Below are positions 3,819-44,090 of a DNA stretch of 64,000 nucleotides, one piece after another (the stretch's first letter is position 1; each line of letters starts with the position of its first letter). The stretch is taken from NCBI GenBank assembly GCA_041659265.1, contig JBAZYP010000003.1, positions 101,221 to 165,220 of the forward strand. The letters are read 5' to 3'. Made by a program: the position numbers and the translations under genes. Origin of the DNA: Candidatus Pacearchaeota archaeon. GTDB taxonomy: Archaea > Nanobdellota > Nanobdellia > Pacearchaeales > GW2011-AR1. The notes beneath the pieces were generated by a model that was not told where the DNA came from, searched no databases, and saw only the letters and a program-made list of their open reading frames with translations.

Positions 3819-3904
3819 CAGGCAACCCTTTCGGATTACCTGGGATTATGTTAATATTATTAATAGTTTATAGTATATAAGATTTTCTATGTTATAAATA
3901 AAAT

Positions 3905-3928
3905 GGACTTAAGAGAGGATCGAACTTA
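3905..3928 (-). other. tRNA 3'-end-like fragment (T-loop TTCGATC + CTCTC + TTAAGTCC). No complementary 5' acceptor strand is found upstream, so it is not a complete tRNA.
   Basis: The reverse complement reads ...AAGTTCGATCCTCTCTTAAGTCC, sharing the T-loop and acceptor 3' strand pattern with the adjacent tRNA-Val. The T-stem 5' strand (ATAAG) cannot pair. Confidence 0.3.
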
Positions 3929-3956
3929 TTCGATCACATTCCTATGAATCCTAGAT

Positions 3957-3977
3957 AGTATTTGCTTTGCAAATACT
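3957..3977. terminator. Perfect 9-bp stem / 3-nt loop hairpin (AGTATTTGC-ttt-GCAAATACT) preceded by oligo-T (minus-strand sense) just 3' of tRNA-Val. Candidate terminator or processing signal.
   Basis: Read directly. On the minus strand the tRNA 3' end is followed by TATATTTT and then the hairpin. Confidence 0.35.
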
Positions 3978-3985
3978 AAAATATA

Positions 3986-4056
3986 TGGACCTAGAGAGGA
4001 TCGAACTCCCGAATTATCGGTGTAAACGATATGGTTTGCCACTAGCCTATAGGTCC
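3986..4056 (-). tRNA. tRNA-Val (anticodon UAC), 71 nt without encoded CCA
   Basis: The reverse complement GGACCTA-TA-GGCT..AACC-TATCG-TTTACAC-CGATA-ATTC-GGGAG-TTCGATC-CTCTC-TAGGTCC-A folds as a cloverleaf. The 7-bp acceptor is perfect and the canonical T-loop is TTCGATC. The anticodon loop TT-TAC-AC gives anticodon TAC. Confidence 0.8.
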
Positions 4057-10715: not shown

Positions 10716-11651
10716 ATGGGTTTATTAAAAAAAATAGGTTTATTATTAATTTCAATTTTATTGATATTTACTCTTAGTTTTGCAGTAATACTTTATGGAT
10801 TTGGAGAAGTTTTCAATAAAGAGGTTTATTTTGATTCATGTGAAAAAAATAATGTATATTCTTCAATTGAATTTCAATTAAAAAATGAGTCTATGTCTGA
10901 ATTTTTTATTTTAGAAGGCGGAGTTAAACCTTTTGTTCAGGATAAAATTGTTAATTTCTTGGATTATATGAAAAATGAAAGAGATGATCTTGATTTAAAA
11001 ATTAAAGTTAATAAAACACTTCTCTATAAACAATTTGGCGAACAAATAAAAGATATTCCTTTATGTCCTGAAGAAGTTAAAGTTTTCAATAAAGAAAATA
11101 TCTGTAAACCGATTAATATGGGTAATGAGGAATTTATAGATAAAATTCTAGATTCTCAAAACATGTCCGGACTTATTACTGATAGTATTGATTTAAAAGA
11201 AACCTTTAATCAAGATGGTAATCTGGATAAAAATTTAAAAAATCTTAGACAAATTTATCCAATGTATCAAAAGATATTACTTGCTTTATTCATATTATCA
11301 ATTTTTTTTATTCTAATGATAATATTCATGGATTTAAACACAATTAAACCATTATTAAGGACCTTAGGAATTGTTTTAATTATTGTTTCAATAAATCTTT
11401 ACACATTTAGTTCAATACTTATTTCAACTTATGATAAAGAATCTGCTAAAATGATTTCTGAATTTAGTTCAGAAATTGATTTAACTATGTTTATAGGTCT
11501 TGTTAGGGATTTATTCGTTGCAATAACTTTAAAGATTAAACCTCTTGGTATTGGATTTTTAATTATAGGTTTAATATTTGTAATATTATCAATATTGATT
11601 AAAACAGATAGACCTATTATAAAAAGAAAAAAAGATATTCATAAAAAATAA
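10716..11651 (+). CDS. Membrane protein (N-terminal TM, several C-terminal TM helices), function unknown
   Basis: Hydrophobic segments in the ORF translation. Confidence 0.4.
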   Translation: MGLLKKIGLLLISILLIFTLSFAVILYGFGEVFNKEVYFDSCEKNNVYSSIEFQLKNESMSEFFILEGGVKPFVQDKIVNFLDYMKNERDDLDLKIKVNKTLLYKQFGEQIKDIPLCPEEVKVFNKENICKPINMGNEEFIDKILDSQNMSGLITDSIDLKETFNQDGNLDKNLKNLRQIYPMYQKILLALFILSIFFILMIIFMDLNTIKPLLRTLGIVLIIVSINLYTFSSILISTYDKESAKMISEFSSEIDLTMFIGLVRDLFVAITLKIKPLGIGFLIIGLIFVILSILIKTDRPIIKRKKDIHKK

Positions 11652-11714
11652 AATAATTCTTTTATTTTTTATTCAAGTTCTCTTAATAAATATTCATAAA
11701 TATCAAGTAGGCCA

Positions 11715-13565
11715 TTAATTTGGTTTAACTTTAAAATCCTTGACATAATTAATGGTTCTTGTAAATTCTTTTTTAAATTCATGAAATTCAGGTATATTTC
11801 GAGTTGATGTAACCAAATAATCATATAAATCTCCTATATCCTTTAAATGGACCAATGAATATCCTAAATATTGTGAATTATCAATATCTCTTTTTCTCTT
11901 ATCATAATAATTCATAGCTAAGACACAACTAAAATCATTTTGAAACTCTTTTCTTTCAGTTTCATCTAGAGAATGACATATTTTAAAATAACTTGGACAA
12001 TCAGAAATTGGAATATCTCCTCTTTTTTTATCATTACCAGAAAGAATAATTGGATGCCACTCTAAAAATTGTTCATTAACTAAAAAGTCTATTCCTCCAT
12101 TATTAAGATTTTTATCATTTACTTGAAAATTAACTTTTTCAATGATTCTATAACTTGGAATATATTTTTCAAGTAGTAAAGCTACAGCTCCTTCTTGTTG
12201 TGAGGAACAATAAAACCTTCCTTCTACATGATATGAATTTTTTCTATGTAATTCTACTGTCCTTTTTCCATTTATCCTGCCCATTCTTTTTCCGTTATCT
12301 TTTTGAATTTCTTTTAGTTCTTCTTCAGTTACTCCGGGAAAATAAGTTCCAAATCTTTCATATTTTGTTTTAGCAGATTTTTTACATATATCTGATATTT
12401 CTTCAGGAGTTTTATCCTTCCAAGGAAGTCCTTGATCTCTTATCCTATTTCTACCAATTTCTTTCTTTCTTTCTTTCGTGATATTTTTAGCTGGATTTCC
12501 ATTTACCTCGATATTTCTTTTTCCAGCTTTACTTCTTATTTGATAAGCTAATTCAGGATCAAGAGCTTGCTGTCTTTGTAGAGATTTACGACTTGTGATA
12601 ATTCTTTTTCTTTCAAATTTTTCCTCCGAGGTTAAAAATCTTGAAATATATTTTGTAATCATTTCTTTTGTTACTCCAAGAATTATAGCCAACTCAATAT
12701 TTTCAGTCATATTATAATCTTCTTGTTTTCTTGCGATTTCTAATTCCTCTTTAATAAGTTCAATCATAGCCACTCTATCTTCTATACTTGTTTTGCCATT
12801 TTTTGTTGCTGAACAAGCCGTTGATCTTTGTTTAGATTTTGTTTGATCATGTTCTTTTAAATACTTTCTAATAGAATTAACCGACCATCCTGTAAGGATT
12901 TTTAGTTCATCATGTGTTGGAAGTGAATATATTTTACCTTTTTCATAAAGTTCATATTGTTCATTTAAAAGTCCATTAAATGCTTTTATATCTTCAGGAT
13001 CAATCTGGCGTTCTTGAGAATGTAACACTCTGCTTCTAAAAGTTCTATCTATTTCATTTAATGAGGGTATAATATTATGTGAAATATATGTCCCTGAAGA
13101 ATCTATTATCTCTGCAAGTTCGTAATTAGGTGTTAATCTTTTAATTTTTCCTTGCCTATACATCTCAATTTCATCAGAGATTAATTCAACAAACGCTTCT
13201 TTATCTACATCATTTAGTAAAGTATTTTTTTTAATAATTTTTTCTATAGTTTCTTTAGAAAGTGGCTTTCCTTTTTTTAATTGAGATAATGTTTTTATTG
13301 GAAAACCCATTTTTTTTAAAATCTTTAAAGAAGTATCTTTCCTTATGTTAAGTTCTTTATCAAGATCATTTGCTGAAGCATCGCTTTGATGATATCTAAA
13401 TAAATAAAATTCATCAAGACTTGTTGCAAGTCCTCTTTCAATAACTTGTTTTTCAATATCAAGCCAATTTCTATAATTTGGTCTGGATCGAGGATCAGCA
13501 TCATTAATAATATCTTGAAGAGACCTTATTTCAAGTCCAGAAATATGATCAATAACCGTTGTCAT
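11715..13565 (-). CDS. Large 616-aa protein with repeated helix-turn-helix-like modules and a C-terminal possible nuclease-like domain. Last gene of an 11-gene operon.
   Basis: Three similar segments (ELAEIIDSSGTYISHNI, LKILTGWSVNSIRKYL, ELAIILGVTKEMITKYI). C-terminal GGIDFLVNEQFLEWH. No confident family assignment. Confidence 0.4.
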   Translation of the reverse strand: MTTVIDHISGLEIRSLQDIINDADPRSRPNYRNWLDIEKQVIERGLATSLDEFYLFRYHQSDASANDLDKELNIRKDTSLKILKKMGFPIKTLSQLKKGKPLSKETIEKIIKKNTLLNDVDKEAFVELISDEIEMYRQGKIKRLTPNYELAEIIDSSGTYISHNIIPSLNEIDRTFRSRVLHSQERQIDPEDIKAFNGLLNEQYELYEKGKIYSLPTHDELKILTGWSVNSIRKYLKEHDQTKSKQRSTACSATKNGKTSIEDRVAMIELIKEELEIARKQEDYNMTENIELAIILGVTKEMITKYISRFLTSEEKFERKRIITSRKSLQRQQALDPELAYQIRSKAGKRNIEVNGNPAKNITKERKKEIGRNRIRDQGLPWKDKTPEEISDICKKSAKTKYERFGTYFPGVTEEELKEIQKDNGKRMGRINGKRTVELHRKNSYHVEGRFYCSSQQEGAVALLLEKYIPSYRIIEKVNFQVNDKNLNNGGIDFLVNEQFLEWHPIILSGNDKKRGDIPISDCPSYFKICHSLDETERKEFQNDFSCVLAMNYYDKRKRDIDNSQYLGYSLVHLKDIGDLYDYLVTSTRNIPEFHEFKKEFTRTINYVKDFKVKPN

Positions 13566-13570
13566 TTTCC

Positions 13571-15667
13571 TTAATCTCCATTTTTAATATCAGCATTATA
13601 AAGATCACTTAGTTCTTTTCCAGTAGGAATCTTTCTATGAATCAGATATTTTAGTTTTATATCTTGGCTAAATGTTTCAAGATCACTCATTTGGGGTCTT
13701 GAATCTCTGTTCCTAAATCTATTTGGAAATCTTGCTTCACTTAGAGATTTTGAAAAAAGTTCAATCTCTTGACAGTCATAACCCGTACTAGTTATATCTT
13801 CAACTAAATAATTAATCCAAGGTTCATAACCAGAAAAATGATGGGAATGACAGTTAACTATGGAATCTCTTAAGAGAGTTTCAGGAATATTAATAATTTG
13901 AGTATTATCAGTTTTTTCAGGAGCGACTATACTAGAATTATTAACTTTTGGTTTAGTCTCATTTGGGAATTTTTCTTCATAATTAACAACTAAATTATCA
14001 AAAATACTTTTATAAAAATCATGATCATGCAGAAAATAAGAGACAATTATATCATAAGATAATTCAATGTTTCCTTCACTATTAGGTTCAAACATTCCTA
14101 AAGGTTCAAACAAAAATCCAGGACTATGACAAAAATAAGCCATTGATAGATTAGGATCAATATTATCAAGCACTTCAAGTCTTTTTAATTTTAATCTATT
14201 AAAATCATTTATAGCTCTATTCATAAAATGTTTATGATCAAAATATAATCCTTTTGATATTTTAGCAACTAGATTATTTTCAATATCATTTTCTTCAGCT
14301 TTTTTTATACAATCTAATAGGACACCCCTATATTTCTTTATATCCTTATCTATATATGACACTTCATTTAATAGTTCTGTTAAGTTTTCAACTGTTTCCT
14401 TGAACAATTTTCTTAGAACACCGTATCTTTCTTTAACATTTTGATTTGCATGTGCCTGAAGAGATATTTCTCTTGAAATCAGTTTTGTTATATCAACATT
14501 CAATCTAAATGACTTATCATATCCTTTATCAAATTCTCTTCTTTTTTTAGGATCTTTAACTGACATAATTGATTTTGTCATTATCTCTTCCATTGTTTTT
14601 GCTGGAATAAACCAATATTTATATTTGTTAAGTTCTTCATAAGATTCTTGTGTTTCAGGGCTCGAGACTAATCCTTCAAGCATTGACAATTGTTTTCTTG
14701 AAACTTGGATAGGTCTTTTATATTTCTCTCTTTCTTCTTGATTTTCAAAAATATCATAATATTCCATTAATTGATAGAATAATGGTGCTCCTTGTGTAAA
14801 TTTTCTTTCTACATTCTCATTTATACTTCCAGTAGAAATTCTTTCACAATCTTCAAAGGAAAATTCATTATTATCTTCAGATATCGTATTGAAAATAAGT
14901 CCTGTTTTTTGTTTTTCATCTGAATCATTTTTTTCAACATTTTTCTTTTCTCTTCTTCCAGAATTTCCAGAATCTACAATTCCAGTATCGACTTTTCTTT
15001 TTTTTCTTTCTCTAGGTCTTTCTGCTTCCTTTCTATCTTGATCATTAAAGATAATTGGATCAAACTGGTTTATTTGATAGTCTTGTCCTCTTGAGATTTC
15101 ATTTACAGTATATAAACTAAGGCGATTATTTTCAATATCCCTTTCAAAAGTATAATAAATTCTTGGTTTAATCTCAGGAGAGACAAAAATTATTCTTGAT
15201 TCTTTGTCACCATTAAGATGCCTATGAATTTCCCTTATTTGACTTTCAACATCTTCTTCATTAATCTTTAATTCAATATAAACTCTATTTCCGTTTTTAT
15301 CTATCGCTTTAATATCCGGTCTTCCTGATTTTAATCTAGACTGCCTTTCAATAAAAACTAATCCAGGTTCAATTTGTTCTATATTATAGTCTCTTGCAAT
15401 ATAAGTTTCAAAATCATCTTCTCTTCTATCTTTCTCAACCTTTTCTCTTTTAGAATGTGCATTTGCTTTTCCAATCCTTTGATATATTTTTCCTATTCTT
15501 TCAACTAGGTCTCTAAAACCAAACTTTTCACTAAACTCTTCAAAGACTTCAAGTTCTCTATGATATTTGCCTCCTGAAAGTTCTTCATTTTCTCTAACAA
15601 GTTCTTCAAGATCCGGCCTCAATAGAAATTTTATATCTTGATCAGGATCTATCATTGCTTGACTCAT
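13571..15667 (-). CDS. 698-aa protein with an N-terminal PD-(D/E)xK (restriction-endonuclease-like) motif and a large uncharacterised C-terminal region
   Basis: FIERQ ... GRPDIKAIDKNGNRVYIELK is the classic E ... PD ... (E)xK arrangement. K/R/E-rich linker. Confidence 0.45.
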   Translation of the reverse strand: MSQAMIDPDQDIKFLLRPDLEELVRENEELSGGKYHRELEVFEEFSEKFGFRDLVERIGKIYQRIGKANAHSKREKVEKDRREDDFETYIARDYNIEQIEPGLVFIERQSRLKSGRPDIKAIDKNGNRVYIELKINEEDVESQIREIHRHLNGDKESRIIFVSPEIKPRIYYTFERDIENNRLSLYTVNEISRGQDYQINQFDPIIFNDQDRKEAERPRERKKRKVDTGIVDSGNSGRREKKNVEKNDSDEKQKTGLIFNTISEDNNEFSFEDCERISTGSINENVERKFTQGAPLFYQLMEYYDIFENQEEREKYKRPIQVSRKQLSMLEGLVSSPETQESYEELNKYKYWFIPAKTMEEIMTKSIMSVKDPKKRREFDKGYDKSFRLNVDITKLISREISLQAHANQNVKERYGVLRKLFKETVENLTELLNEVSYIDKDIKKYRGVLLDCIKKAEENDIENNLVAKISKGLYFDHKHFMNRAINDFNRLKLKRLEVLDNIDPNLSMAYFCHSPGFLFEPLGMFEPNSEGNIELSYDIIVSYFLHDHDFYKSIFDNLVVNYEEKFPNETKPKVNNSSIVAPEKTDNTQIINIPETLLRDSIVNCHSHHFSGYEPWINYLVEDITSTGYDCQEIELFSKSLSEARFPNRFRNRDSRPQMSDLETFSQDIKLKYLIHRKIPTGKELSDLYNADIKNGD

Positions 15668-16302
15668 TTTCTTTCCTCCTCATCTTTTCTTTCCTGAATT
15701 TGCTTTTTCTCCCATTCTTCATTTCTTTTTTTAAGAGACTGATTTATTTCATCAATCTTAGTTTTTATTAGATTAGGTAGATTTGTTGGTTCTTGATAAA
15801 TCTCTGATATCTTTACTAAAGGTATATCTCCAGCATATTTTAAAAAAAGTTTTTTCCCAGGTTTATGAGAGGGCCCATAACCAAAGGTTATAACAGATAA
15901 ATCTTGAGGAACAATTTCTTCATCTGGTTTTGAGGTATATAGAATAAGTCCATCACTATTTTGATCAAGTTCAATTATTTTAGCTTGTTCAAGTTCCATT
16001 CTAAGAATTTCCACTTGTTTTTCAAGATTATAATAACAAGTGCTTGCTGTTTCTTCTAATGCAAGTTTTTTTACTGTTTCATATTGATATGGCTTTAATT
16101 CTCCATTATAATTAAATTGAACAAAGTTTTTATCATCTGTTCGCAATTCTAGACCTAATAAAAATAATCCGGGTTTTGATATATCAGGTATTTTTGCATA
16201 ACTTACAGGAGTTACTACAATAGGATCTTGTTGAAGTTTTAAAGTTAAATGATATATTCTTCTATCAAAATTTCTTGATCCATTTTCAATTGAGGGTTTC
16301 AT
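15664..16302 (-). CDS. Hypothetical protein with K/E-rich C-terminus
   Basis: ORF track. 4-nt overlaps with both neighbours. Confidence 0.4.
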   Translation of the reverse strand: MKPSIENGSRNFDRRIYHLTLKLQQDPIVVTPVSYAKIPDISKPGLFLLGLELRTDDKNFVQFNYNGELKPYQYETVKKLALEETASTCYYNLEKQVEILRMELEQAKIIELDQNSDGLILYTSKPDEEIVPQDLSVITFGYGPSHKPGKKLFLKYAGDIPLVKISEIYQEPTNLPNLIKTKIDEINQSLKKRNEEWEKKQIQERKDEEERK

Positions 16303-17657
16303 TTTAATCCTCCAAAGTCACTTGTTTTTGAACCAAAAATAATTCCATTAGATTCTAAAAAATCATTAACTCCCCTTGTAGGAAGTTTTGGATCTCCTTC
16401 TCTATATCTTTTATCAAATAGTTTTAGAGAATCATTGAATATTTTGGCATTAATTGGATCTTCAAAATCTTTTTCATAAATATCAATAATGGCAGATAAA
16501 GCACTTCTATAATTACTATAATCTTTGAAAGAAGAATCTAAAACTAATTTATATTCAGCTAATACTGGTTCTAATTTTTTATTTACTAATCCATCATAAG
16601 TTCCATTAATTCCATTTTTTTCATTAATAACACTTTCTTCAATTGCATCTGTTAAAGCCTTTGATTTTAAACACCATGCCCTTGGAAATCTTATATCACA
16701 TTCATATAATGTTTTAGGATATTTATTCAAGAATTCTTCGCTTTTTTTAAGATATTCTTCAGGACTAATTGTTTTAGTTCTGTTACTTCCATGTTCAAAT
16801 AAAATAGTTTTTACTTCACTTTCAGCTTTTTTAAGGGAAATATATTCTTCAAATTCTTTTGGTATTAAACCTGCTTCTTGTGCTAATCTTATTTTTCCTA
16901 TAATTTTTTGATTTGGCTTAATTTGATTTCCATTTAAATCTTTACTACCATAAAAAAAATCGACAAATAAATTTGGATTTATTTCTGCTTCAGAACATGT
17001 TTCTGCAATATCTTCACCAATATTAGATCTAGCATAATCCGAGATAAAACCCTGTCTTTGAAATTCTTCCCTTCCAATAATATCTTCTAAATAATGACCA
17101 ACAAATTTTAATCGGGATAGTTCGCTTTTTATCTTTCCTATATATAGGCTATCTCCATTTTCATCTTTAGCTAATTCATTCCATTTTTTATAAAAATCAT
17201 TATCACAATATTCTGAAGCCTTATTATGTTTGATTTCATGTATTAAAGTATCATTTCCAGATGATTTGTTTACTTCAATTTTTCCTTTTCCAAAAGGTAT
17301 AAAAACTCCTTCGTTTCTTTTTAAAAAACAAAATTCAAATTGATTAATAACATCCTTTTTAAGATAATTATTTGATCTTATGGTTATATTAGACAAATCA
17401 AAATAATTTTCTTGTTGTTCTCTTTCAAAAATATATGATAATTGAGAAACTAAACCTTCATTATCCTCAACATCATCCCTAAATCCTCTTAAGGAGAGAT
17501 CATATTCTTCTTCAAACTCTCTTCTTACTTGGCTAGGATTATTTGAATTATTTATATTATTTATTGTGTAATTTGCTTGAGTTCCAAGGTGCAATAATAT
17601 TGTTGGAACAATCAAGAGTTTTGCTAATCCTTTTAATAATGTTTTAAATTTTTTCAT
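16299..17657 (-). CDS. Secreted protein with an HExxH motif (putative zinc metallopeptidase)
   Basis: Signal-peptide-like N-terminus MKKFKTLLKGLAKLLIVPTILL. HEIKH at about residue 150. Downstream GEDIAE supplies a possible third ligand. Confidence 0.4.
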   Translation of the reverse strand: MKKFKTLLKGLAKLLIVPTILLHLGTQANYTINNINNSNNPSQVRREFEEEYDLSLRGFRDDVEDNEGLVSQLSYIFEREQQENYFDLSNITIRSNNYLKKDVINQFEFCFLKRNEGVFIPFGKGKIEVNKSSGNDTLIHEIKHNKASEYCDNDFYKKWNELAKDENGDSLYIGKIKSELSRLKFVGHYLEDIIGREEFQRQGFISDYARSNIGEDIAETCSEAEINPNLFVDFFYGSKDLNGNQIKPNQKIIGKIRLAQEAGLIPKEFEEYISLKKAESEVKTILFEHGSNRTKTISPEEYLKKSEEFLNKYPKTLYECDIRFPRAWCLKSKALTDAIEESVINEKNGINGTYDGLVNKKLEPVLAEYKLVLDSSFKDYSNYRSALSAIIDIYEKDFEDPINAKIFNDSLKLFDKRYREGDPKLPTRGVNDFLESNGIIFGSKTSDFGGLK

Positions 17658-18532
17658 TTTCTTTCCTCCTGTGTTTTAGTGCATGCAACATAACTGAATT
17701 TACCTATATCAAAACCCATATCAAGTTTTGATTCATCAGGTTGAAAATAAGCTAAACCGCATTTGTATAATGAATTAGGTTTATATCGCTTGAATTTAAA
17801 ATTAGGAGCTAAAAAATTTATTAGTTCAACTGATCTCTTAACTAAAACTCTTTCTCTTGAAGTTTTTTTCTTTTTATTGAAATAATATTCATTAGCATAT
17901 TTTCTCGCTTCTTCTCTATCTATATCAATTGGTGGAGTTGATTTTTCTTGAAAAAATAATATAGGATAACTTCCTTTTCTTTTTTGTTTATCGCATGTTC
18001 CAATTATTACCATAATAGGTTTAACATATAGTCCGCTTTTATGATATTGGCTTCTTAAACTAGTCATAACTTCAGTATCTGCAATTGAAGGAGTCGGTTC
18101 TCCTGAAGGATGAGTATGAAAATGAAATAAAGTATAATATTTATCAAGTTCATCAGGAACTTCTGAAAATTCAGGTTCTATCTTTGGATAAGATTCTAAT
18201 AATAATCTGTTTTCAGAACAAAAATCAGTAAATTCAAAATCATCTTCTGGATTTATTTGTCCAAATTTTTTATAAAGTTGATTAGCAAAGTCATAACTAG
18301 TAGGTAAACTTACACTTTTTTCGTCTCCTATGATTATTGTGTCTGGATAATATAATCTTGAACCAAATACTTCTTTTTTAATTTCATATAATATCTCTAA
18401 ATCTCCAACCCCTAGATTACTCCTATCATAAGTTGATATTTCTATAGCTCTTTCTAAACCTGAAATAAATCTCTTGCTAGTTATTTCTCTTTCTAAAAGT
18501 TCTCTATCTACAATTTCAAATTGCTCAGTCAT
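17654..18532 (-). CDS. JAB/MPN (JAMM) metalloprotease-domain protein
   Basis: FHFHTHPSGEPTPSIAD fits the JAMM motif HxHx7Sx2D. Confidence 0.55.
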   Translation of the reverse strand: MTEQFEIVDRELLEREITSKRFISGLERAIEISTYDRSNLGVGDLEILYEIKKEVFGSRLYYPDTIIIGDEKSVSLPTSYDFANQLYKKFGQINPEDDFEFTDFCSENRLLLESYPKIEPEFSEVPDELDKYYTLFHFHTHPSGEPTPSIADTEVMTSLRSQYHKSGLYVKPIMVIIGTCDKQKRKGSYPILFFQEKSTPPIDIDREEARKYANEYYFNKKKKTSRERVLVKRSVELINFLAPNFKFKRYKPNSLYKCGLAYFQPDESKLDMGFDIGKFSYVACTKTQEERK

Positions 18533-19229
18533 TATTAATCTCCATATTTTTTGTTATAAAATTTTTATAATCATTTGGCTTCAACCAGTTAATTCTTGGA
18601 ATTTTTCCAGATAATAAATAAGATATTCTCAATAATTTTGATCTTTTTTTTAATTCTTCTTGAGTTAAATTTTTATATTCAATTAATTTTACTTCACTAT
18701 CTTCAATATCAAAACCAGTTTGATTTTTTTTCAAAACTATACTTTGACTGGCACATGATATAGATAAATAACCTTTAGATTTAACAAGCCGGGTTATTCC
18801 TTGAAGTATACTTCTATAATCTTTATCACTAATATTATCTCCAACATTATCAAAAGTTAAATTATTCATTAAAACAACCATATCAAAGGATTCATCCATG
18901 AATGGAGGTTGATTTGGAAGCCTATATCCATGTTCTCGATAAAATTTAGGGGATCTATTTAATATTTCTGCAAATTGAATTACCTCAGGATTTATATCAA
19001 TTCCAACGACTTCTGAATCCGGATAAAGTTTTTGAATTTCTTGAGTAGTTAATCCATATGAGCATCCCCAATCTAAAATTCTTGAATCTTTTGGTAATAG
19101 TGGTAATTTTCCAAAGGTTTCTTTAACTCTTCCATTCCATGTTGAATTAGATATCCAATATGATCTTTCTTCAAGACAATCTTGAGGAATATATTCAGCT
19201 GTTAATTTTGTTTCTAATTTTTCAGTCAT
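18525..19229 (-). CDS. Class I SAM-dependent methyltransferase
   Basis: Motif I ILDWGCSYGLTT plus acidic motif II VVGIDINPEV. Confidence 0.65.
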   Translation of the reverse strand: MTEKLETKLTAEYIPQDCLEERSYWISNSTWNGRVKETFGKLPLLPKDSRILDWGCSYGLTTQEIQKLYPDSEVVGIDINPEVIQFAEILNRSPKFYREHGYRLPNQPPFMDESFDMVVLMNNLTFDNVGDNISDKDYRSILQGITRLVKSKGYLSISCASQSIVLKKNQTGFDIEDSEVKLIEYKNLTQEELKKRSKLLRISYLLSGKIPRINWLKPNDYKNFITKNMEINND

Positions 19230-19837
19230 TTTATTCTACCTCCACATACTTTTTTTATTCTTCTTTTCATCTTTATTTTAGTAAATGGACTCCAAAAATC
19301 ACTAGCTTTTTCAATTCTACCCATAATCCCATATCCAATTGAAGAATCATTTGCTCCAAATAAATGGCTTAATTCATGTAAAATTGATCTGTATCTTAAA
19401 TCCTCATTTGTTGCTATATTTACAACAGCAAGTTTTTCATCTTCATCGCTTGATCCTAAACAAATATTTCCAAAATGATTATTTCCATTTCTATTAATTA
19501 AAATTAATTTGTATCTATCTATTAAATCTCCAGAAAAAATTTGTTTGTAATCCATTAATATTTTTCCACACCTTGTAGCATCAACATAATCGTCCAATAA
19601 TTTTTTATCTGATTTATTTGAAGTGGATAATTTTCCTAATACAAATAACTCAGGAATTGATTGAGCATAAGGTGCTTTAATTATTCTCATATTAAAACTT
19701 GTATCAAATTCATCATTAAATTTATCATTAACTCTTCCTAATAAATTAAATAATCTAACTCTACTTTCGGAATTATCATAAATATCATGCATCTCAGGAG
19801 TCAAATATACTCCAAGTTCTAAATTAAATTTACTCAT
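19226..19837 (-). CDS. Putative zincin-like metallopeptidase (HExxHxxG; archaemetzincin-like signature without the Cys motif)
   Basis: RSILHELSHLFGANDSS. Confidence 0.4.
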   Translation of the reverse strand: MSKFNLELGVYLTPEMHDIYDNSESRVRLFNLLGRVNDKFNDEFDTSFNMRIIKAPYAQSIPELFVLGKLSTSNKSDKKLLDDYVDATRCGKILMDYKQIFSGDLIDRYKLILINRNGNNHFGNICLGSSDEDEKLAVVNIATNEDLRYRSILHELSHLFGANDSSIGYGIMGRIEKASDFWSPFTKIKMKRRIKKVCGGRIK

Positions 19838-20094
19838 TCTCTTTCCTCCAAAACTTCAATTGTTAGTTTAGTTAAAGTCCCAGGTTTTAATTGCAATTCA
19901 AGAATTTTTGGTATAACTATAATTGCTTGTTTTCCATGTTTAGCTACTCGTTTAGTTATTGTAAATTCTTTGTTTTGATTATTTGAATTTACTAGACTAG
20001 AAAAATTTTTATTGGATTTTTCTTGGATAGTAAATTCTTTGTTGTTTTTTTTAGAATTTTCAAGATTTGAAGTTTGAGAGATAGATTCTTCCAT
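19834..20094 (-). CDS. Small protein, possible AbrB/SpoVT-like swapped-hairpin DNA-binding fold
   Basis: KHGKQAIIVIPKILELQLKPGTLTKLTIEV resembles the AbrB/MazE beta-hairpin region. Weak. Confidence 0.25.
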   Translation of the reverse strand: MEESISQTSNLENSKKNNKEFTIQEKSNKNFSSLVNSNNQNKEFTITKRVAKHGKQAIIVIPKILELQLKPGTLTKLTIEVLEERE

Positions 20095-20096
20095 TT

Positions 20097-20411
20097 TTAT
20101 CTCCTAAATCTTGAGTATAAGATTATTATAGAAATATCAATAAAAAAAATACTAATTAGTGCAATAATTGGATAATAAATGGTTTTTATCATACTTACTC
20201 CATTTCCAATACTAAAATTATAAACAATAAAAAATCCTAGAATCATTAACCCAATTAAAGAAAATGCAACTAGTGCTGGAAAAGTTCTAGCGAGAGTATT
20301 ATAAAACGAATATTTATCTTGTTTTTTCCTACTATAATTTAATTCTACAACTATATCTCCTTGTTTCTTGTAACTTTTAATTAATTGTTGATTCATTTTG
20401 CTTCCTTCCAT
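20097..20411 (-). CDS. Small membrane protein (2 TM helices)
   Basis: Hydrophobic segments. Confidence 0.35.
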   Translation of the reverse strand: MEGSKMNQQLIKSYKKQGDIVVELNYSRKKQDKYSFYNTLARTFPALVAFSLIGLMILGFFIVYNFSIGNGVSMIKTIYYPIIALISIFFIDISIIILYSRFRR

Positions 20412-20752
20412 TCCTTTGCTCTTAATTCATCAAGAACAATTCTTACTAGTTCTCTATCATCAGATCTTAAATCAGAGGGTTCAACTTTTTCAAGTTCAAC
20501 TTTTCCATCAATTGATTTTTCTCTAACAAAAACTTTTGGACAGATTAATCCCCCAGGAATTTTTATTGAACTTTCTTTTGAATATGATCCTTCATTAGAT
20601 TTTTGATAAAATGAAATTCCTAGATTTTGATATTTACTAGCAACTTCTGAAAAATCTTCTTGAGTTTCATCTATTCTTCCTGAATAGAACCTAATGTCAT
20701 ATTGTTTTCCATTAGGTACAACTTTAACTTCTTTTAAATTTGGATTTAACAT
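20393..20752 (-). CDS. Hypothetical protein, 119 aa
   Basis: ORF track. Overlaps both neighbours. Confidence 0.35.
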   Translation of the reverse strand: MLNPNLKEVKVVPNGKQYDIRFYSGRIDETQEDFSEVASKYQNLGISFYQKSNEGSYSKESSIKIPGGLICPKVFVREKSIDGKVELEKVEPSDLRSDDRELVRIVLDELRAKEWKEAK

Positions 20753-21300
20753 TTTTCTGTACCTCCTTCTATATGTATAACAGTGTCATCAGGTCTAATA
20801 TCTCCAATATAAGCCCCATCATGAGTATAATATAATGTCTTTTCATCAAATCTTTCAAAACCATTATTTTCTAATAATTCAACTAAAGGATCAAGTCTAG
20901 ATTCCATTCCAGGTATGCATTTTATTTTTTGAACTATTCCTACTTTGCTAACTCTTGCAAAATTTGTTAATCTATCAACTAAAACTTTTTCAAAACCTTT
21001 TCCTCTAAATTCAGGTTCAATATAAAAATCGGAGATTATATACCATTTATGTTCCATATCAAGATTATCATCACTTCCTAATTTTATTTCTCTGAGTTCA
21101 GAATTACCAACCATTCTATTTCCTTTTTGAAGATAACCGCAATACTTTCTTTTACTTTTTACAATATTATTATATTCATCAATTTCAAATTTTGGAAACT
21201 CTCCAGTATATTCTAAATCTGGTACTATATTCTTTTCTTTTACTTCTTCTTTTCTTACTAATTTATATTGTTGAACTTCCATTTTGTATGTTTTATACAT
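20746..21300 (-). CDS. GNAT-family N-acetyltransferase. First gene of the operon.
   Basis: GNAT motif A, RGKGFEKVLVDRL. Confidence 0.5.
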   Translation of the reverse strand: MYKTYKMEVQQYKLVRKEEVKEKNIVPDLEYTGEFPKFEIDEYNNIVKSKRKYCGYLQKGNRMVGNSELREIKLGSDDNLDMEHKWYIISDFYIEPEFRGKGFEKVLVDRLTNFARVSKVGIVQKIKCIPGMESRLDPLVELLENNGFERFDEKTLYYTHDGAYIGDIRPDDTVIHIEGGTEKC

Positions 21301-21506
21301 ATAATATGTATATACTATACAGTAACAACATATATTTAAAGCTTTCGATTTTGTTACCCTTATAAAGTGATACTAATAAAACCTTTATAAATTGGTTTAA
21401 ATTAAGAAAAAAGGCATTTTTAAGCCTTATTAAGGCAATTTATTAGATAATTATATAATATTTATATTTACAAGAATTATTTATTATCCTTCTTCATAAA
21501 CTAATT

Positions 21507-22519: not shown

Positions 22520-22753
22520 ATGGAAACAAAAATAATTAGGGTTACTGATAAAGGTCAAATATCTATTCCAGTTGAGATAAGAAATGCTATGGGAATCTTA
22601 GCTGGTGATGAACTTATTGCTGTTAGGGAAGGAGAATCAATATTTTTAAGAAAAATTAAAAAAGACGATTTTAAAGATCTACTAAAACATTCAGAAGCGG
22701 TTGCAAATAAACTTTGGAATAATAAAGAAGATGATATCTGGGATAAAGTTTAA
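22520..22753 (+). CDS. mazE: AbrB/MazE/SpoVT-family antitoxin
   Basis: IIRVTDKGQISIPVEIRNAMGILAGDELIAVREGESIFL is the swapped-hairpin signature. Confidence 0.65.
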   Translation: METKIIRVTDKGQISIPVEIRNAMGILAGDELIAVREGESIFLRKIKKDDFKDLLKHSEAVANKLWNNKEDDIWDKV

Positions 22754-23078
22754 TCAAGGAGATATTTTATTAGTACCCTTTCCATTTTCTAATTTAAAAG
22801 GTATAAAAAAAAGACCTGTATTAGTTATATCTAAAATAAATTATCAAAAACAATGTGATGATATTGTTACTTGTGGCATTACTGCTAATCTTAAAGATTC
22901 AAGATATTCAATATTAATTGATAATTCTAATTTAATTGAAGGAAACATTCCTGTGAAAAGTAGAATTAAAGTGGATAAGATATTTACCTTAGATAAGAAT
23001 ATTGTTATTAAAAAGATTGGAAGAATTAATGAAGTTACTTTTAATCTGGTTAAAACTGAATTTTTTAATCTTATATAA
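22731..23078 (+). CDS. mazF: MazF/PemK-family toxin (endoribonuclease)
   Basis: GDILLVPFPFSNLKGIKKRPVLVIS. The start is probably the ATG at 22731, which overlaps the antitoxin end; the ORF-track start at 22701 is a TTG. Confidence 0.7.
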   Translation: MISGIKFNQGDILLVPFPFSNLKGIKKRPVLVISKINYQKQCDDIVTCGITANLKDSRYSILIDNSNLIEGNIPVKSRIKVDKIFTLDKNIVIKKIGRINEVTFNLVKTEFFNLI

Positions 23079-23211: not shown

Positions 23212-25017
23212 ATGGAAAAGAAATCTCATGATAAAAAACCCGAAGAAACTTTAGATTCTAAAAATTATCAAAATTCTGAGATTAAAGGTCAACCTACTAA
23301 TCAACTTACTCCAGAACAAACAAAAGAAATGGAAAAAGTTAGGGAAAAGTTAGATGAATTGAAAAAATTGATTATTGATAAATACGGAAAATCTGTTGAA
23401 GCAATAGGTATTATTCCTCCTCAAGCTGCTGATGCATTTGATGATGAAAACGAACTTAATGAAGAAGAGCGAAAGAAAAAACCTATGCACTTAGTTGTTG
23501 TTATGGACGATGATAAAGAAAAAGAATATAATGAGATTAGGTCTCATATTGTTAAACAAATAGCAGAATCAAAACAAAATATCTGGTTAAATTTATTATT
23601 GACAAAGGACTTATGGGATTTATGCCAAGATTCAAAATATGCAATTATTGAAGCAATTGGAATGTCTTATCCCTTGCATGATAAAGGAAAATTAGCAGCC
23701 TTAAGAGTTGCTCAGATCCATAAATCTCTTGTATTAAAAAAATTCGAGAAATATGTTTATTCTTATGTTATTGGCGGAAGTCTTGTTAGAGGAGATGCAA
23801 TAAAAACTAGCGATGTAGATACTTATGTTATAATTGATGATACAGATGTAAAAAGAATGCCAAGATTAGAATTAAAGGAAAAATTAAGAAATATTATCTA
23901 TTCATATATAATGCAGGCAGGTGAACTTGCTGGAGTAAAAAATACTCTTAATGTTCAGGTTTATTTACTTACAGAATTCTGGGAAGGGGTTAAAGATGCT
24001 AATCCTATTTTCTATACTTTCTTAAGAGATGGAGTCCCATTATATGATAGAGGCGGATTCTTGCCATGGAAATTATTATTAAAAATGGGTAAGATTAAAC
24101 CATCTCCAGAATCTATTGATATGTTTATGTCAATGGGAGATAAGACTTCTGAAATTGTAAAAAGAAGATTACTTGATATTGTTATTGGTGATATTTATTG
24201 GGGAGTTATTACTCCAAGTCAGGCTATTCTTATGTTATATGGTCTTCCACCAACAACCGTTAAAGAAACAGTTCCAGAAATGAAAAGAATTTTTGTTGAT
24301 AAGGAAAAACTTTTAGAACAAAAATATGTTGATATTTTAGAAGAAATTTTAATAAAATATTACAAAGGATATGAACACCAGAAAATTAAAGAAGTTTCAG
24401 GTAAAGATGTTGATAGACTTCTTAAGAATGCTGAAGATTATTTGAAAAGATTAAAAGAATTAAGGGAAGATTTAGAAAAACAAATGCAGAAGAAAACTTT
24501 TGAAGAAATATACACAAATGTATTTAAGATAATGGGTTCTATTTACGGTGAAAAATCTGAAAGCGAATTAATAAAAACATTTGAAAAAGAAATGGTTAAT
24601 ACCGGAAAAATCCATCCAAAATTCTTGCATACAGTTAATGAACTTCTTTCAATAAAAAAAGATTACAAAAACAAAAAACTTCCAACTAAATATGCTTTTG
24701 AAACATTAAGAAAAGATTCAGTTTATCTAATTGAAAGTTTGGTTGAATATTCTCAAAGAAAAGAATTAGGTCTTTTGGAAAAAACAAAAATAACTTTGAC
24801 ATTTAAAGATAAACATGCTGAATTATTCTTAACTAAACCCTCATTCTTAGTTCATGATAATAAAGTTAAGAAGATAACTGATAAAATTGAAAATTCTGAC
24901 ATGAATGAATTCAATAAAGTTTTAACTGAACATAAAGGTTCCAAAACCAAATTAGATAATCACATGATGAATCTTCTTAGAGCAGAGTTAGGCGAATTCG
25001 ATATTGTAATGGGTTAA
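23212..25017 (+). CDS. 601-aa nucleotidyltransferase-superfamily protein (Pol-beta-like NTase domain plus long helical C-terminal region)
   Basis: YVIGGSLVRGDAIKTSDVDTYVIID matches the GS...S.DxD NTase motif. The remainder is unassigned. Confidence 0.5.
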   Translation: MEKKSHDKKPEETLDSKNYQNSEIKGQPTNQLTPEQTKEMEKVREKLDELKKLIIDKYGKSVEAIGIIPPQAADAFDDENELNEEERKKKPMHLVVVMDDDKEKEYNEIRSHIVKQIAESKQNIWLNLLLTKDLWDLCQDSKYAIIEAIGMSYPLHDKGKLAALRVAQIHKSLVLKKFEKYVYSYVIGGSLVRGDAIKTSDVDTYVIIDDTDVKRMPRLELKEKLRNIIYSYIMQAGELAGVKNTLNVQVYLLTEFWEGVKDANPIFYTFLRDGVPLYDRGGFLPWKLLLKMGKIKPSPESIDMFMSMGDKTSEIVKRRLLDIVIGDIYWGVITPSQAILMLYGLPPTTVKETVPEMKRIFVDKEKLLEQKYVDILEEILIKYYKGYEHQKIKEVSGKDVDRLLKNAEDYLKRLKELREDLEKQMQKKTFEEIYTNVFKIMGSIYGEKSESELIKTFEKEMVNTGKIHPKFLHTVNELLSIKKDYKNKKLPTKYAFETLRKDSVYLIESLVEYSQRKELGLLEKTKITLTFKDKHAELFLTKPSFLVHDNKVKKITDKIENSDMNEFNKVLTEHKGSKTKLDNHMMNLLRAELGEFDIVMG

Positions 25018-25214
25018 TTAAACTAGTCGATTTTATCGACTAAGATTTCATTTGATGAATCTTCTTAAGATGTAGAGTTAGGCGAATTCTAAATTTTAAT
25101 TAAGTTAAACCTAGTAGATTTTATCGACTAAGATTTCATTTGATGAATCTTCTTAAGAGAGAGTTAGGCGAATTCGATATTGTAATTAAGTTAATTAAAC
25201 TAGTCGAATTTTTC
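24964..25214. repeat. Three tandem copies of about 87 bp, the first of which contains the last 18 codons and the stop of the 601-aa gene. Each copy carries the hairpin TAGTCGAT-ttt-ATCGACTA (degenerate in copies 2 and 3).
   Basis: Read directly: GATGAATCTTCTTA(A)GAGNAGAGTTAGGCGAATTC ... TTAATTAAACTAGTCGATTTTATCGACTAAGATTTCATTT repeated at about 24964, 25050 and 25138. Confidence 0.7.
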
Positions 25215-25278
25215 TTTTAAAATATTCATTATTCTCATCAATCTAAATATTTATAATATATTTAATATCAGCTTTTTC

Positions 25279-43543: not shown

Positions 43544-44085
43544 TTTTTATGTTTAAAGACACAACATCCAGTTGTCATGCAATTATATATTTTTATTCCA
43601 CCACAAAAACCAAAACTTGATGCTGTCTTTAACAAAGCTAAAAAGAATAATATAACAAATCCAATTCTTTCATTAATATAATACAAAAATATTAATGCAA
43701 TAAAACTAAATATTGCCCCTAATAGATTAGCAAAAATAACAGCCTTTCTATCATAAGTATCTTTTTTAGATTTCATTAATTTTTCTACTGTATTTTCAAA
43801 TAATAATACAAATGGATTATATTCAGTTTTTAATGTAACTGCAATAAGAATTAAAACAAATCCTAATAAAGCAATTTCTTTAATTTGAAAAATTATTGCA
43901 AGGAAGTATAAAATAGCTATTATAATTTTTGAAAATCCTAGCGAATATCTTGATATTGAAAAAAATCTTTCATTAGTAAATCCGCCAGCTTTAATAATAG
44001 TATCAACAATTCTTTTTTTATCATCGCAAAGATCTTTATAAGACTCTTGATATACTCTTTTTGCTATTTTTTCTCTATCACTCAT
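43540..44085 (-). CDS. Membrane protein (4 TM) with a Cys-rich C-terminal tail
   Basis: C-terminus FGFCGGIKIYNCMTTGCCVFKHKK. Start overlaps the lgt stop. Confidence 0.4.
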   Translation of the reverse strand: MSDREKIAKRVYQESYKDLCDDKKRIVDTIIKAGGFTNERFFSISRYSLGFSKIIIAILYFLAIIFQIKEIALLGFVLILIAVTLKTEYNPFVLLFENTVEKLMKSKKDTYDRKAVIFANLLGAIFSFIALIFLYYINERIGFVILFFLALLKTASSFGFCGGIKIYNCMTTGCCVFKHKK

Positions 44086-44090
44086 TTTTA

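Follow-up and report, generated by a model that had tools for sequence, protein, structure and literature searches.

What brings eleven poorly characterized genes together, start upon stop, on one strand of an archaeal chromosome? Few cells are as poorly understood as DPANN archaea, in which about one gene in two counts as dark matter. The genes considered here lie in a chromosomal contig of a Candidatus Pacearchaeota (DPANN) MAG (assembly GCA_041659265.1, contig JBAZYP010000003.1), at positions 11715–21300 of the whole stretch of 64,000 nt that was analysed, hereafter the window; all are on the minus strand. A sequence-only reading had described them as an operon-like array of poorly characterized proteins whose domains are such as occur in conflict systems, and that description holds. 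With confidence evenly balanced, we regard the array as a composite, probably co-transcribed, of at least four separately inherited modules within a variable dark-matter island, having an accessory role of conflict or stress type.

Organization and packing of the array

All eleven of the ORFs first listed were present, with the same coordinates and in the same order, and every junction proved to be overlapping or no more than 5 nt apart. Numbered from the upstream end, genes 1 and 2 overlap by 7 nt and genes 2 and 3 by 19 nt (4 nt with the 99-aa start of public gene calls), whilst a 2-nt gap separates genes 3 and 4. Overlaps of 4 nt are found at junctions 4/5, 5/6, 7/8, 8/9 and 9/10, with one of 8 nt at 6/7 and a 5-nt gap at 10/11. 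These are real genes: homologues outside the window were found for ten of the eleven, and support for the other, the methyltransferase, is confined to Pfam. For genes 1, 2 and 3, dN/dS against a 78.6 %-identical relative was 0.57, 0.35 and 0.16, respectively, and is relaxed for two of them (0.35–0.57).

In the divergent intergenic region upstream (21301..21506), a BRE/TATA-like match, AAAGC-TTTAAATA, stands ∼35 nt before the first ATG of the array; as this region is AT-rich, the match has low specificity. Past the last stop, oligo-T runs in the convergent intergenic region (11652..11714) form a candidate archaeal terminator. We infer both promoter and terminator as candidates from the letters only. 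The array is flanked by a MazE/PemK toxin-antitoxin pair and adjoins a conserved block encoding a 601-aa Pol-beta-type NTase, L35Ae and L10e/L16; a tRNA-Val gene lies at a distance of 7.6 kb, beyond a MoxR operon.

The overlapping starts and stops first noted for the array are normal here (21 of 53 co-directional junctions in the window). The array is the longest tight run in the window, the next having eight and four genes, and its packing is only partly special, since overlap is usual in this genome. Such figures suit an explanation by streamlining, in which unrelated lineage-specific housekeeping or regulatory genes lie head to tail solely because the genome is 92 % coding, the share found in the window, and have neither a joint nor a conflict function. 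In its favour, 28 of the 53 co-directional junctions are of ≤ 10 nt, GC is uniform, defence-system matches are absent, and relatives of the 452- and 616-aa proteins (genes 8 and 11) are common in DPANN, often beside genes for tRNA synthetase, ligase, TBP or ribosomal proteins. The roles named under this explanation are surface-protein processing, RNA/protein methylation and DNA repair.

Proteins encoded by the array

Gene 1 (20746..21300) encodes a GNAT-type acetyltransferase-like protein of 184 aa with an N-terminal extension. Its match to Pfam Acetyltransf_1 is borderline (20.9 bits versus a cutoff of 20.7, E 4.6e-4) and is accompanied by a PHROG acetyltransferase match (1.3e-3); two short homologues (P0089 and P0104) are GNAT by JGI naming. 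The soluble 119-aa product of gene 2 (20393..20752) has no family match among Pfam, PADLOC, PHROGs and NCBIfam profiles, and only two homologue clusters (P0062, at 63 % identity, and P0162). Gene 3 (20097..20411) specifies a small membrane protein with two hydrophobic segments, 104 aa in length or, if translation begins at the second ATG, 99 aa. The order of these three genes is kept at one related locus, L023, where the orthologue of gene 1 occupies the same position at 73 % identity and that of gene 3 shows 66 % identity.

The 86-aa product of gene 4 (19834..20094) had been called AbrB-like. This was a resemblance by eye only, to the AbrB/SpoVT pattern, and the call gained no support: for gene 4 and its two homologues, a search for AbrB/SpoVT (MazE-like) proteins gave no Pfam, NCBIfam or PDB profile match. 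Its N-terminal extension stems from an internal duplication with 69-nt spacing at 19958–20071. The homologues (53 and 68 aa) are found inside operons headed by zincins resembling the 452-aa protein (L028 and L024), and we retain the label AbrB-like for this family. Gene 5 (19226..19837) encodes a putative peptidase of 203 aa, mini-metzincin-like, with the sequence HELSHLFGAND. The underlying motif, HExxHxxGxx[D/H] with a conserved Met ∼10 residues downstream, is shared by all three family members, without variation in either homologue (P0091 or P0135). Pfam Reprolysin_5 matched below threshold (17.6 bits versus a cutoff of 27, E 0.0048), and a PDB sequence search gave no match. At the level of the motif, which is metzincin-like, the original HExxHxxG call holds. 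For the 234-aa product of gene 6 (18525..19229), assignment as a class I SAM-dependent methyltransferase is solid (Pfam Methyltransf_31, 51.3 bits versus a cutoff of 27; Methyltransf_25, 45.3; Methyltransf_11, 45.2; E from 1e-13 to 1e-11). NCBIfam, PADLOC and PHROGs returned generic methyltransferase-domain matches only, and no DNA-methyltransferase family matched.

Gene 7 (17654..18532) encodes a 292-aa putative JAB/MPN metalloenzyme. Its JAMM motif, HxHx7Sx2D (H137/H139, S149 and D152, with a conserved E71), is intact as first noted, is invariant in a homologue (P0019) and is present in the protein from locus L012, which places gene 7 among JAB/MPN proteins by motif. The top HMM matches were PADLOC JAB (1.1e-7) and Pfam RadC, the latter just under threshold (21.5 bits versus 22.1, E 2.3e-4); NCBIfam RadC scored 19.5 bits against a cutoff of 180 (E 6e-4), and the sole PDB sequence match, to the RadC homologue 2qlc (E 0.1), covers the motif region only. 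Like RadC-type and Cap3-type JAB proteins, gene 7 has an intact JAMM and a RadC-like 'H-T-H-P-S-G-x-P-x-P-S'; unlike them it carries unique N- and C-terminal extensions, and unlike classical RadC it has no HhH domain. As profile searches of the eleven proteins and the flanks found no CD-NTase, ThiF/E1 or E2 domain, the locus is not CBASS.

Gene 8 (16299..17657) specifies a 452-aa protein with an N-terminal hydrophobic helix, a gluzincin domain of Peptidase_Mx1/ATLF type, C-terminal TPR and a short tail ending in FGG-LK. H140, E141, H144 and E215 are invariant among 57 aligned family representatives; with HExxH plus a downstream Glu ligand, the protein belongs with the Peptidase_Mx1-type gluzincins. 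The HExxH call made from the sequence thus stood, whilst the large DPANN family to which the protein belongs, Mx1-type zincins fused to TPR with at least 135 representative clusters, had been overlooked. The first reading also had the protein as secreted, a label that gained no confirmation: a hydrophobic N-terminus is plausible, but this region carries a family-conserved motif and forms one long helix in an AF2 model. Likeness to BepA (zincin plus TPR) is architectural only. Compared with Peptidase_Mx1/BACCAC_01431 (PDB 4l7a), this family is archaeal (DPANN) and has its own conserved N-terminal helix and TPR extension; unlike the 'substrate import-associated zinc metallohydrolase lipoproteins', gene 8 is no Bacteroidetes lipoprotein and has no SusC/D or TonB link.

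Gene 9 (15664..16302) encodes a 212-aa member of a small DPANN family with three homologue clusters (P0126, P0130 and P0142), linked weakly but reciprocally (E ∼1.5e-3) to proteins of ∼175–181 aa from operons with a 452-like gene (L024 and L012). Gene 10 (13571..15667) encodes 698 aa, comprising an N-terminal helical region, a NucS-C-type PD-(D/E)xK domain, a basic linker and a helical C-terminal region of ∼440 aa. Residues ∼71–204 match the C-terminal domain of NucS in three HMM libraries (NCBIfam, 4.8e-7; phrog_36793, 4.6e-8; Pfam NucS_C, 1.4e-4), whose concurrence points to the PD-(D/E)xK nuclease superfamily. The motif consists of an acidic residue at 107, D118, E132-L-K134 and Q143, all invariant in a homologue except position 107 (E in gene 10, D in the homologue); with D118 and E132-x-K134 thus retained, the earlier nuclease call is upheld, as a NucS-type domain. 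The only homologues are a 994-aa protein (P0002) and a fragment in L014. P0002 is 43 % identical over residues 1–350, is most conserved in the nuclease-domain region and has a duplicated C-terminal region. Assignment to NucS/EndoMS itself was rejected, as only the C-terminal catalytic domain matches, at 29.1 bits versus 216 for NCBIfam and 22.2 versus 24 for Pfam NucS_C. Gene 10 keeps the motif residues of NucS/EndoMS (D, ExK and Q), but has neither the N-terminal DNA-binding/dimerization domain nor the PCNA-binding tail, and its domain sits within a chain of 698 aa that also includes a large C-terminal region; only two or three homologues are known.

The last gene, gene 11 (11715..13565), encodes 616 aa: an N-terminal domain, three HTH repeats of ∼70 aa, a basic NUMOD3-like region and a C-terminal domain. 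The repeats were as first described; what had been overlooked is that the conserved C-terminal domain is a candidate restriction-endonuclease fold, defined here by an alpha-beta-beta-beta-alpha-beta core plus conserved acidic residues, with E458, D493, E502 and H504 conserved. The family is widespread in DPANN, usually among housekeeping genes in the order TrmB, ∼350 aa, RHH, 616-like (L004, L015, L017, L019, L020 and L022).

Taken as a list of enzymes, the array might suggest a RiPP-like maturation cluster, with small proteins tailored by the GNAT, methyltransferase and peptidases and the HTH/nuclease proteins as unrelated neighbours. This is barely plausible: the block holds no cyclodehydratase, radical SAM, lanthionine synthetase or exporter, its small proteins are conserved, unlike hypervariable precursors, and GNAT, methyltransferase and peptidases do not co-occur in relatives.

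Known systems, mobile elements and related loci

The claim that the array corresponds to no named system agreed with PADLOC-DB v2, in which the ten proteins other than the 104-aa membrane protein gave no known anti-phage defence system; there were isolated JAB matches (best 1.1e-7) and a generic methyltransferase match to mad2 (4.5e-9), and nothing else. The stated absence of ATPase, cyclase and E1/E2 was likewise confirmed, and any defence role is putative.

Zincin peptidases, GNAT, RadC-type JAB, methyltransferase, ParB and nucleases are recurrent domains of conflict proteins (PMC5512222). The array shares zincin, GNAT, RadC-type JAB, SAM methyltransferase, nuclease and HTH with the polyvalent proteins of phages and conjugative elements (Iyer, Burroughs, Anand, de Souza & Aravind, 2017; PMC5512222), but consists of separate archaeal chromosomal genes rather than one giant mobile-element protein. 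It could be imagined as what is left of a mobile element or virus that integrated here with its anti-defence genes, the domains of polyvalent proteins now being split into separate genes. The domain set (RadC-type JAB, zincins, GNAT, methyltransferase and nuclease; PMC5512222), the ParB-like motif protein and HTH protein of L012 and the match of phrog_36793 to the 698-aa nuclease domain are in line with such an origin, which is nevertheless very improbable. Profile searches in and near the block found no integrase, replication or capsid genes, no att-like repeats flank it, and its GC equals that of the flanks. Furthermore, the JAB, 452 and 616 families have no IMG/VR relatives, the 698-aa protein no phage match and the JAB protein no plasmid match, and the tRNA-Val gene is 7.6 kb off with the MoxR operon intervening.

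About a dozen gene contexts, all from related Pace-/Woesearchaeota, were compared. At L012 a JAB gene is followed by a 452-like and then a 181-aa gene, together with the ParB-like motif and HTH proteins. L024 and L028 are 452-like operons with an AbrB-like homologue, and in L024 the operon additionally contains a DUF1284-like gene and one for a 212-like relative. L002/L025, where 212-like and 698-like genes are neighbours, have the order RHH, 698-like, 115 aa, 212-like, Pkinase, and lack JAB, 452-like and 616-like genes. In L014 a 698-like C-terminal fragment is followed by F2 and then a 616-like gene. Apart from the 452 and 616 families, those of the array are very rare, with one to four homologue clusters among billions of proteins.

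No related locus has the full set, and at most three of the eleven families occur together. The first reading, a single dedicated eleven-component defence or protein-modification system, is for this reason improbable: the related loci carry separate small modules that occur independently, a sensor NTPase or other hallmark component is lacking, and PADLOC finds no system. What favours it is one tight array with one obvious upstream candidate promoter region, a conflict-like domain mix (PMC5512222) and a variable locus beside a toxin-antitoxin pair.

The suggestion that the block might be a variable island was substantiated by comparison with the syntenic relative L009, which retains the adjoining 601-aa gene, at 74 % identity, and a 178-aa gene (46 %). 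Its divergent operon encodes 283 aa, 672 aa (HTH plus NucS/RecB-like nuclease), JAB and a DUF1284-like protein, and shares only the JAB gene with the eleven. Specificity to the island does not extend to all members, the 452-aa (at least 135 clusters) and 616-aa (housekeeping contexts) proteins being found broadly. Like the archaeal 'dark-matter islands' or defence-type variable islands (Makarova, Wolf & Koonin; PMC6393860), the array consists of contiguous uncharacterized, fast-evolving genes whose content varies between relatives, and combines PD-(D/E)xK domains and small putative DNA-binding proteins beside a toxin-antitoxin pair. Unlike them, it has no defence, integrase or viral signature gene as an anchor, and its 452-like and 616-like members are broadly conserved in DPANN, often in housekeeping contexts.

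These comparisons also bear on streamlining, which we consider unlikely, although it deserves serious weight. The pairings JAB/452-like, AbrB-like/452-like, 212/698 and 698/616 recur at 30–40 % protein identity in varied arrangements, and thus exceed what packing explains; moreover, the distribution of most families is extremely sparse and patchy, and L009 has had nearly all content replaced. Against a composite with a conflict role, shared neighbourhoods among related Pace-/Woesearchaeota could be residual synteny rather than functional coupling, and as the 452 and 616 families are broad and often in housekeeping surroundings, ordinary lineage-specific cell biology fits as well as conflict.

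Proposed modules and possible roles

Read as a composite, the array would consist of at least four modules: (a) GNAT, 119-aa and 2-TM proteins; (b) AbrB-like protein, Mx1-type zincin-TPR and 212-like protein, with JAB ahead here and in one relative; (c) the 698-aa NucS-type nuclease-domain protein, which travels with 212-like genes; and (d) the 616-aa multi-HTH protein with its candidate restriction-endonuclease-fold domain, a widespread DPANN gene paired elsewhere with a small RHH protein. In the window, the mini-metzincin and methyltransferase genes separate the AbrB-like gene from the JAB gene. The modules may have accumulated in a fast-turnover island beside the conserved 601-aa NTase/L35Ae/L10e/L16 block. 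They look like three metal-dependent peptidase-type and two nuclease-bearing DNA-binding proteins in a lineage-specific patchwork that is possibly conflict-related.

The most likely working logic, by analogy, would be one of proteases regulating nucleases: the metallopeptidases (zincin-TPR, metzincin and JAB) would target small proteins that bind DNA or serve as partners, and thereby regulate or process the two DNA-targeting nuclease proteins. Such a logic would make the array an accessory module of conflict or stress type, not a housekeeping pathway. A metallopeptidase gene beside one for a small putative DNA-binding protein recalls ImmA/IrrE-ImmR and BlaR1-BlaI, as a works-like analogy only, and the 452-like/AbrB-like pair occurs at three loci; in sequence, however, 452-like proteins are unrelated to COG2856/ImmA or M56. 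DNA-binding partners in the cytoplasm would be out of reach for the 452-aa protein, should it be extracytoplasmic.

At present the value of the locus is that of a useful map, and no new system has been discovered. It gives a handle on a large DPANN-wide Mx1-type zincin-TPR family whose catalytic residues are identified and whose structure is modelled with confidence, on a conserved multi-HTH candidate restriction-endonuclease-fold protein pairing with RHH and on a rare NucS-domain giant protein. These families have been brought together time and again, in changing combinations, at a variable site of the chromosome. Should the modules be conflict systems, the defence and counter-defence repertoire would come to include ultra-small episymbiotic archaea; otherwise they would indicate lineage-specific proteolytic and DNA-handling machinery.

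A more specific and quite improbable scheme is a DPANN-specific proteolytic switch, in which JAB would trim the GG tail of the zincin-TPR protein, the protease would cleave AbrB-like or RHH proteins and the two nuclease proteins would be released. Trimming of the conserved C-terminal tail, 'HESR.L..I.GG-x(2-4)', would activate or conjugate the protease, amounting to ubiquitin-like GG-tail processing that differs from ubiquitin systems in having no ubiquitin fold or E1/E2 enzyme. This tail is found only in the zincin-TPR clade closest to gene 8, including both JAB-adjacent members; GG-x(2-3) ends are also present on two other neighbouring proteins.

Organization of the array and its flanks

All eleven minus-strand ORFs that the sequence-only reading had placed at 11715-21300 were found exactly where listed, encoding, from upstream to downstream, proteins of 184 (GNAT), 119, 104 (TM), 86 (AbrB-like), 203, 234 (methyltransferase), 292 (JAB), 452, 212, 698 and 616 aa. 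Their tight overlap was likewise borne out, with eight junctions overlapping and the remaining two being gaps of 2 and 5 nt: the first three are overlaps of 7 and 19 nt (the latter shrinking to 4 nt with the 99-aa start taken in public gene calls) and a 2-nt gap, followed by overlaps of 4, 4, 8, 4, 4 and 4 nt and the 5-nt gap. The 698-, 616- and 292-aa proteins are identical to WC867_03180, WC867_03175 and WC867_03195 on a 223,898-bp contig of a Candidatus Pacearchaeota archaeon MAG. Coding sequence fills 92 % of the window, and since junctions of ≤ 10 nt make up 28 of its 53 co-directional ones, 21 being overlaps, such overlap is a habit of this genome; the array is the longest such run, ahead of runs of eight and four genes. 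GC content is ∼27 % across the whole window and does not change at the block. The first ATG is preceded, ∼35 nt away, by a BRE/TATA-like AAAGC-TTTAAATA, and oligo-T runs occur 3′ of the last stop codon, both signals being of low specificity in AT-rich DNA; together, this candidate promoter and the oligo-T runs would be compatible with a single archaeal transcription unit. A sigma-70 promoter scan performed no better than chance, in line with an archaeal source.

The flanking gene at 10716-11651, previously read as kinase-like, proved to encode a multi-TM membrane protein with no Pfam match, and the kinase identity was rejected. The block is also flanked by a MazE/PemK pair, in which a MazE gene (22520-22753) accompanies a PemK/MazF-like toxin gene (22701-23078); a paralogous toxin, 34.5 % identical, is encoded at 50260-50592. 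In several Pacearchaeota a ∼600-aa Pol-beta/MNT-type nucleotidyltransferase (NTase) protein of 54-74 % identity adjoins L35Ae/L16 (window 23212-25017; related loci L009, 1293-3113, L004, 13888-15699, and L015, 19119-20912), and this may be the DPANN-conserved cluster described as an MNT fused to HEPN in a housekeeping context (PMC6393860). Directly after this gene in the window (601 aa), three tandem intergenic units of ∼88 nt (24960-25223; 74-96 % identical) each hold the palindrome CTAGTCGATTTTATCGACTAAG and the sequence AGAGTTAGGCGAATTC.

Domain content and the two widely conserved families

Homologues elsewhere were found for ten of the eleven array proteins, the methyltransferase being backed by Pfam alone, which upholds its assignment as a class I SAM methyltransferase (1e-13). 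The JAMM motif reported for the 292-aa protein is present as HxHx7Sx2D and is invariant among homologues (PADLOC JAB, 1.1e-7; Pfam RadC, 2.3e-4; RadC-like stretch HTHPSGEPTPS). The nuclease motif of the 698-aa protein also held, three libraries each matching residues ∼71-204 to the C-terminal nuclease domain of NucS (4.8e-7, 4.6e-8 and 1.4e-4), with D118, E132-x-K134 and Q143 invariant in the sole full-length homologue. By eye, a 702-aa protein of L004 and a 672-aa protein of L009 carry a similar motif; they were rejected as orthologues, as similarity was undetectable, and BLAST and jackhmmer find links for them solely with one another or with L017. The 203-aa protein has HExxHxxGxx[D/H] and a downstream conserved Met in all three family members, with no HMM above threshold, whilst the 184-aa protein matches GNAT at the Pfam threshold and its homologues are named GNAT by JGI. 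The AbrB-like label of the 86-aa protein found support in no HMM and no PDB profile. Within the 5′ part of its ORF, a 45-nt direct repeat with 69-nt spacing (19958-20071) duplicates an 'NKEFTI' segment, and its N-terminal extension is missing from the homologues in L024 and L028. PDB sequence-profile searches returned nothing informative for the 698, 616, 203, JAB and AbrB-like families.

The sequence-only reading missed that the 452-aa 'HEIKH' protein is a member of a large family. In an exhaustive phmmer search, for which five window proteins were concatenated and matches assigned by query coordinates, it was matched by at least 135 of the 150 listed 50 %-identity representatives, and HExxH was present in all 107 full-length family representatives among the matches listed. 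H140, E141, H144 and E215 are invariant in a 57-sequence alignment, Pfam Peptidase_Mx1 matches 43 of 58 members (best 9.9e-9), and the AlphaFold2 model built from that alignment is very confident (pLDDT 93.8, pTM 0.91), with Foldseek and the sequence profile in agreement. On these grounds the protein is a fusion of an Mx1-type gluzincin and a TPR domain. The N-terminus is sufficiently hydrophobic to serve as a signal peptide or anchor, which makes the earlier description as secreted plausible, but only plausible, because this region has an H..TQ..Y motif conserved in the family and forms a single long helix in the model.

Most members of the 452 family stop soon after a conserved GVNDFL motif. 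A further C-terminal tail of 15-20 aa, 'HESR.L..I.GG-x(2-4)', characterises the clade nearest to the window protein and is seen in the window protein itself (FGGLK; 16299-16330), in L012 (VGGKDEK; 1940-1984) and in the homologue representatives P0025 (IGGNK), P0088 and P0036. GG falls within the last 12 residues in 6 of 108 family representatives. Both JAB-adjacent members have the tail; L024 has it (11390-11434) with no JAB gene within 10 kb. Similar endings occur in the window's 203-aa protein (CGGRIK; 19226-19250) and in a protein neighbouring the L024 gene (YGGNK). JAB enzymes typically cut after GG, and the tail as a JAB processing site is a speculative, post hoc lead that would not work if the zincin were extracytoplasmic.

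For the 616-aa protein, the three HTH-like repeats proved real (∼70 aa each), and the most conserved part, overlooked earlier, is a C-terminal domain of ∼180 aa with invariant E458, D493, E502 and H504. Its 14 homologues are all from DPANN (Pace-, Woese- and Nanoarchaeota), some of them annotated NUMOD3. The NUMOD3 matches raised the possibility of a mobile homing endonuclease, which was rejected, as the homologues keep a conserved chromosomal context; a Cbp1-like CRISPR-repeat binder was also dismissed (NCBIfam 17 bits against a cutoff of 140). The recurring setting elsewhere is TrmB(-)/F2/RHH/616-like/Metallophos-like, with neighbours including tRNA synthetase, DNA ligase, TBP, endonuclease V and ribosomal protein genes, and the 616-like gene of L004 and of L015 is on the opposite side of the L35Ae/L16 block. 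F2, a ∼350-aa family with no Pfam match, is nearly always encoded just upstream of 616-like genes (L020, 6719-7801; L014, 270-1349; L017, 8944-10011; L019, 7956-9038; L015, 7972-9120; L004, 10020-11063) and is absent from the window. A ∼49-aa RHH/ParD-like protein, 73-85 % identical between some loci, adjoins 616-like, 698-like or NucS-motif genes at ten loci (genes at L002, 74-223; L004, 1757-1945; L006, 6506-6694; L012, 3233-3379; L013, 1923-2072; L015, 11507-11644; L019, 9103-9255 and 10566-10715; L020, 7849-8004; L022, 9479-9661); no copy was found in the window. It resembles a regulator or antitoxin-like partner dedicated to the nuclease proteins. In L013, a SLOG cluster-4 protein (1216-1917; Pfam 1.3e-10) is encoded upstream of RHH, DUF1284-like and 616-like genes.

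Mosaic distribution and turnover at the site

We compared all ORFs of about fifteen independent related loci by BLAST and jackhmmer, and found the array families distributed as a mosaic of separate small modules, no locus examined having more than three of the eleven. The GNAT-119-TM module is found in L023 (78.6 % DNA identity to the window), where genes 1-3 are kept in the same order; their dN/dS values of 0.57, 0.35 and 0.16 indicate purifying but relaxed selection. In L012, from a Woesearchaeota MAG, JAB and 452-like genes are followed by genes for a ∼181-aa protein and then GT2, RHH, a ParB-motif protein, another GNAT and an HTH protein; the ParB/Srx-like 'DGNHR' motif (214-aa protein, 3376-4020) was seen by eye only, with no Pfam match. 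L024 and L028 have 452-like operons that lack JAB but contain homologues of the 86-aa protein, L024 also encoding a DUF1284-like protein and a 175-aa protein with a weak two-way link (E about 1.5e-3) to the 212 family. A third module, in L002/L025, runs RHH, 698-like (994 aa), 115 aa, 212-like and Pkinase, with no JAB, 452-like or 616-like genes, and a fourth, in L014, comprises a 698-like C-terminal fragment, F2 and a 616-like gene. Apart from 452 and 616, the array families are extremely rare: word-indexed searches gave one to three relatives of the 698-aa and JAB proteins, and the exhaustive search two to four clusters, among the matches listed, for the 212-, 203-, 119- and 184-aa proteins. 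A first metagenome scan for the 698 family had no match and missed known members too, so coverage of that collection was limited.

The main rival explanation, that unrelated lineage-specific genes were packed together by genome streamlining, accords with the wide conservation of the 452 and 616 families in housekeeping neighbourhoods, but the recurrence of pairings (JAB with 452-like, AbrB-like with 452-like, 212 with 698, 698 with 616, and 616-like with RHH) at 30-40 % identity argues against it. The site itself has turned over. L009 is syntenic with the window, with orthologues of the 601-aa NTase (74 % identical) and of the window's 178-aa methyltransferase-like protein (46 %); of the array it retains only JAB (39 % identical), within a divergent operon encoding a 283-aa surface-type protein, the 672-aa protein (HTH plus a NucS/RecB-like 'D..EVK..Q...Y' motif), JAB, DUF1284-like, TM and DUF1284-like proteins. 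Comparison with a relative therefore supports the variable island proposed earlier. L009 and L006 were considered as joining contigs and rejected, as they do not overlap.

Of the readings considered, a composite operon lying in a variable 'dark-matter island' has the best support. The locus belongs to an already known kind: such islands, enriched for conflict genes, are known from archaeal genomes and are particularly common in DPANN (PMC6393860). Its domain repertoire (zincins, GNAT, RadC-type JAB, MTase, nuclease and HTH) is partly shared with the conflict proteins that mobile elements carry (PMC5512222), a likeness that is thematic only. A virus, plasmid or mobile-element origin was unsupported by gene content, repeats, GC, IMG/VR or tblastn: no integrase, replication or capsid genes and no att-like flanking repeats were found around the block, four IMG/VR scans (JAB, 452-aa, 616-family and 452-family queries) gave no relatives, and tblastn gave no matches for the 698-aa protein in phages or for JAB in plasmids. 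PADLOC returned domain matches only, so that a known defence system was rejected and the earlier statement that no named system matched stands. What survives of the proposed conflict or defence island is a variable, uncharacterised locus whose domains are conflict-like, neither a single system nor a defence role being demonstrable. In the composite operon, we infer, small DNA-binding or partner proteins would be processed or controlled by the peptidases, which would thereby act on the two nuclease proteins, in what would be a conflict- or stress-related role.

Other genes of the window

An eight-gene overlapping minus-strand array at 42752-46937 includes a bacterial-type prolipoprotein diacylglyceryl transferase (LGT, 1e-41), which is unusual in an archaeon, as well as an ICMT-family methyltransferase, DUF4395 and, at 44740-46937, at least five small paralogous proteins in a row. 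Finally, the N-terminus of a 2468-aa protein encoded at 33531-40937 carries a LamG/concanavalin-like domain (Pfam 1.8e-24); this protein is probably one of the giant surface proteins typical of DPANN.
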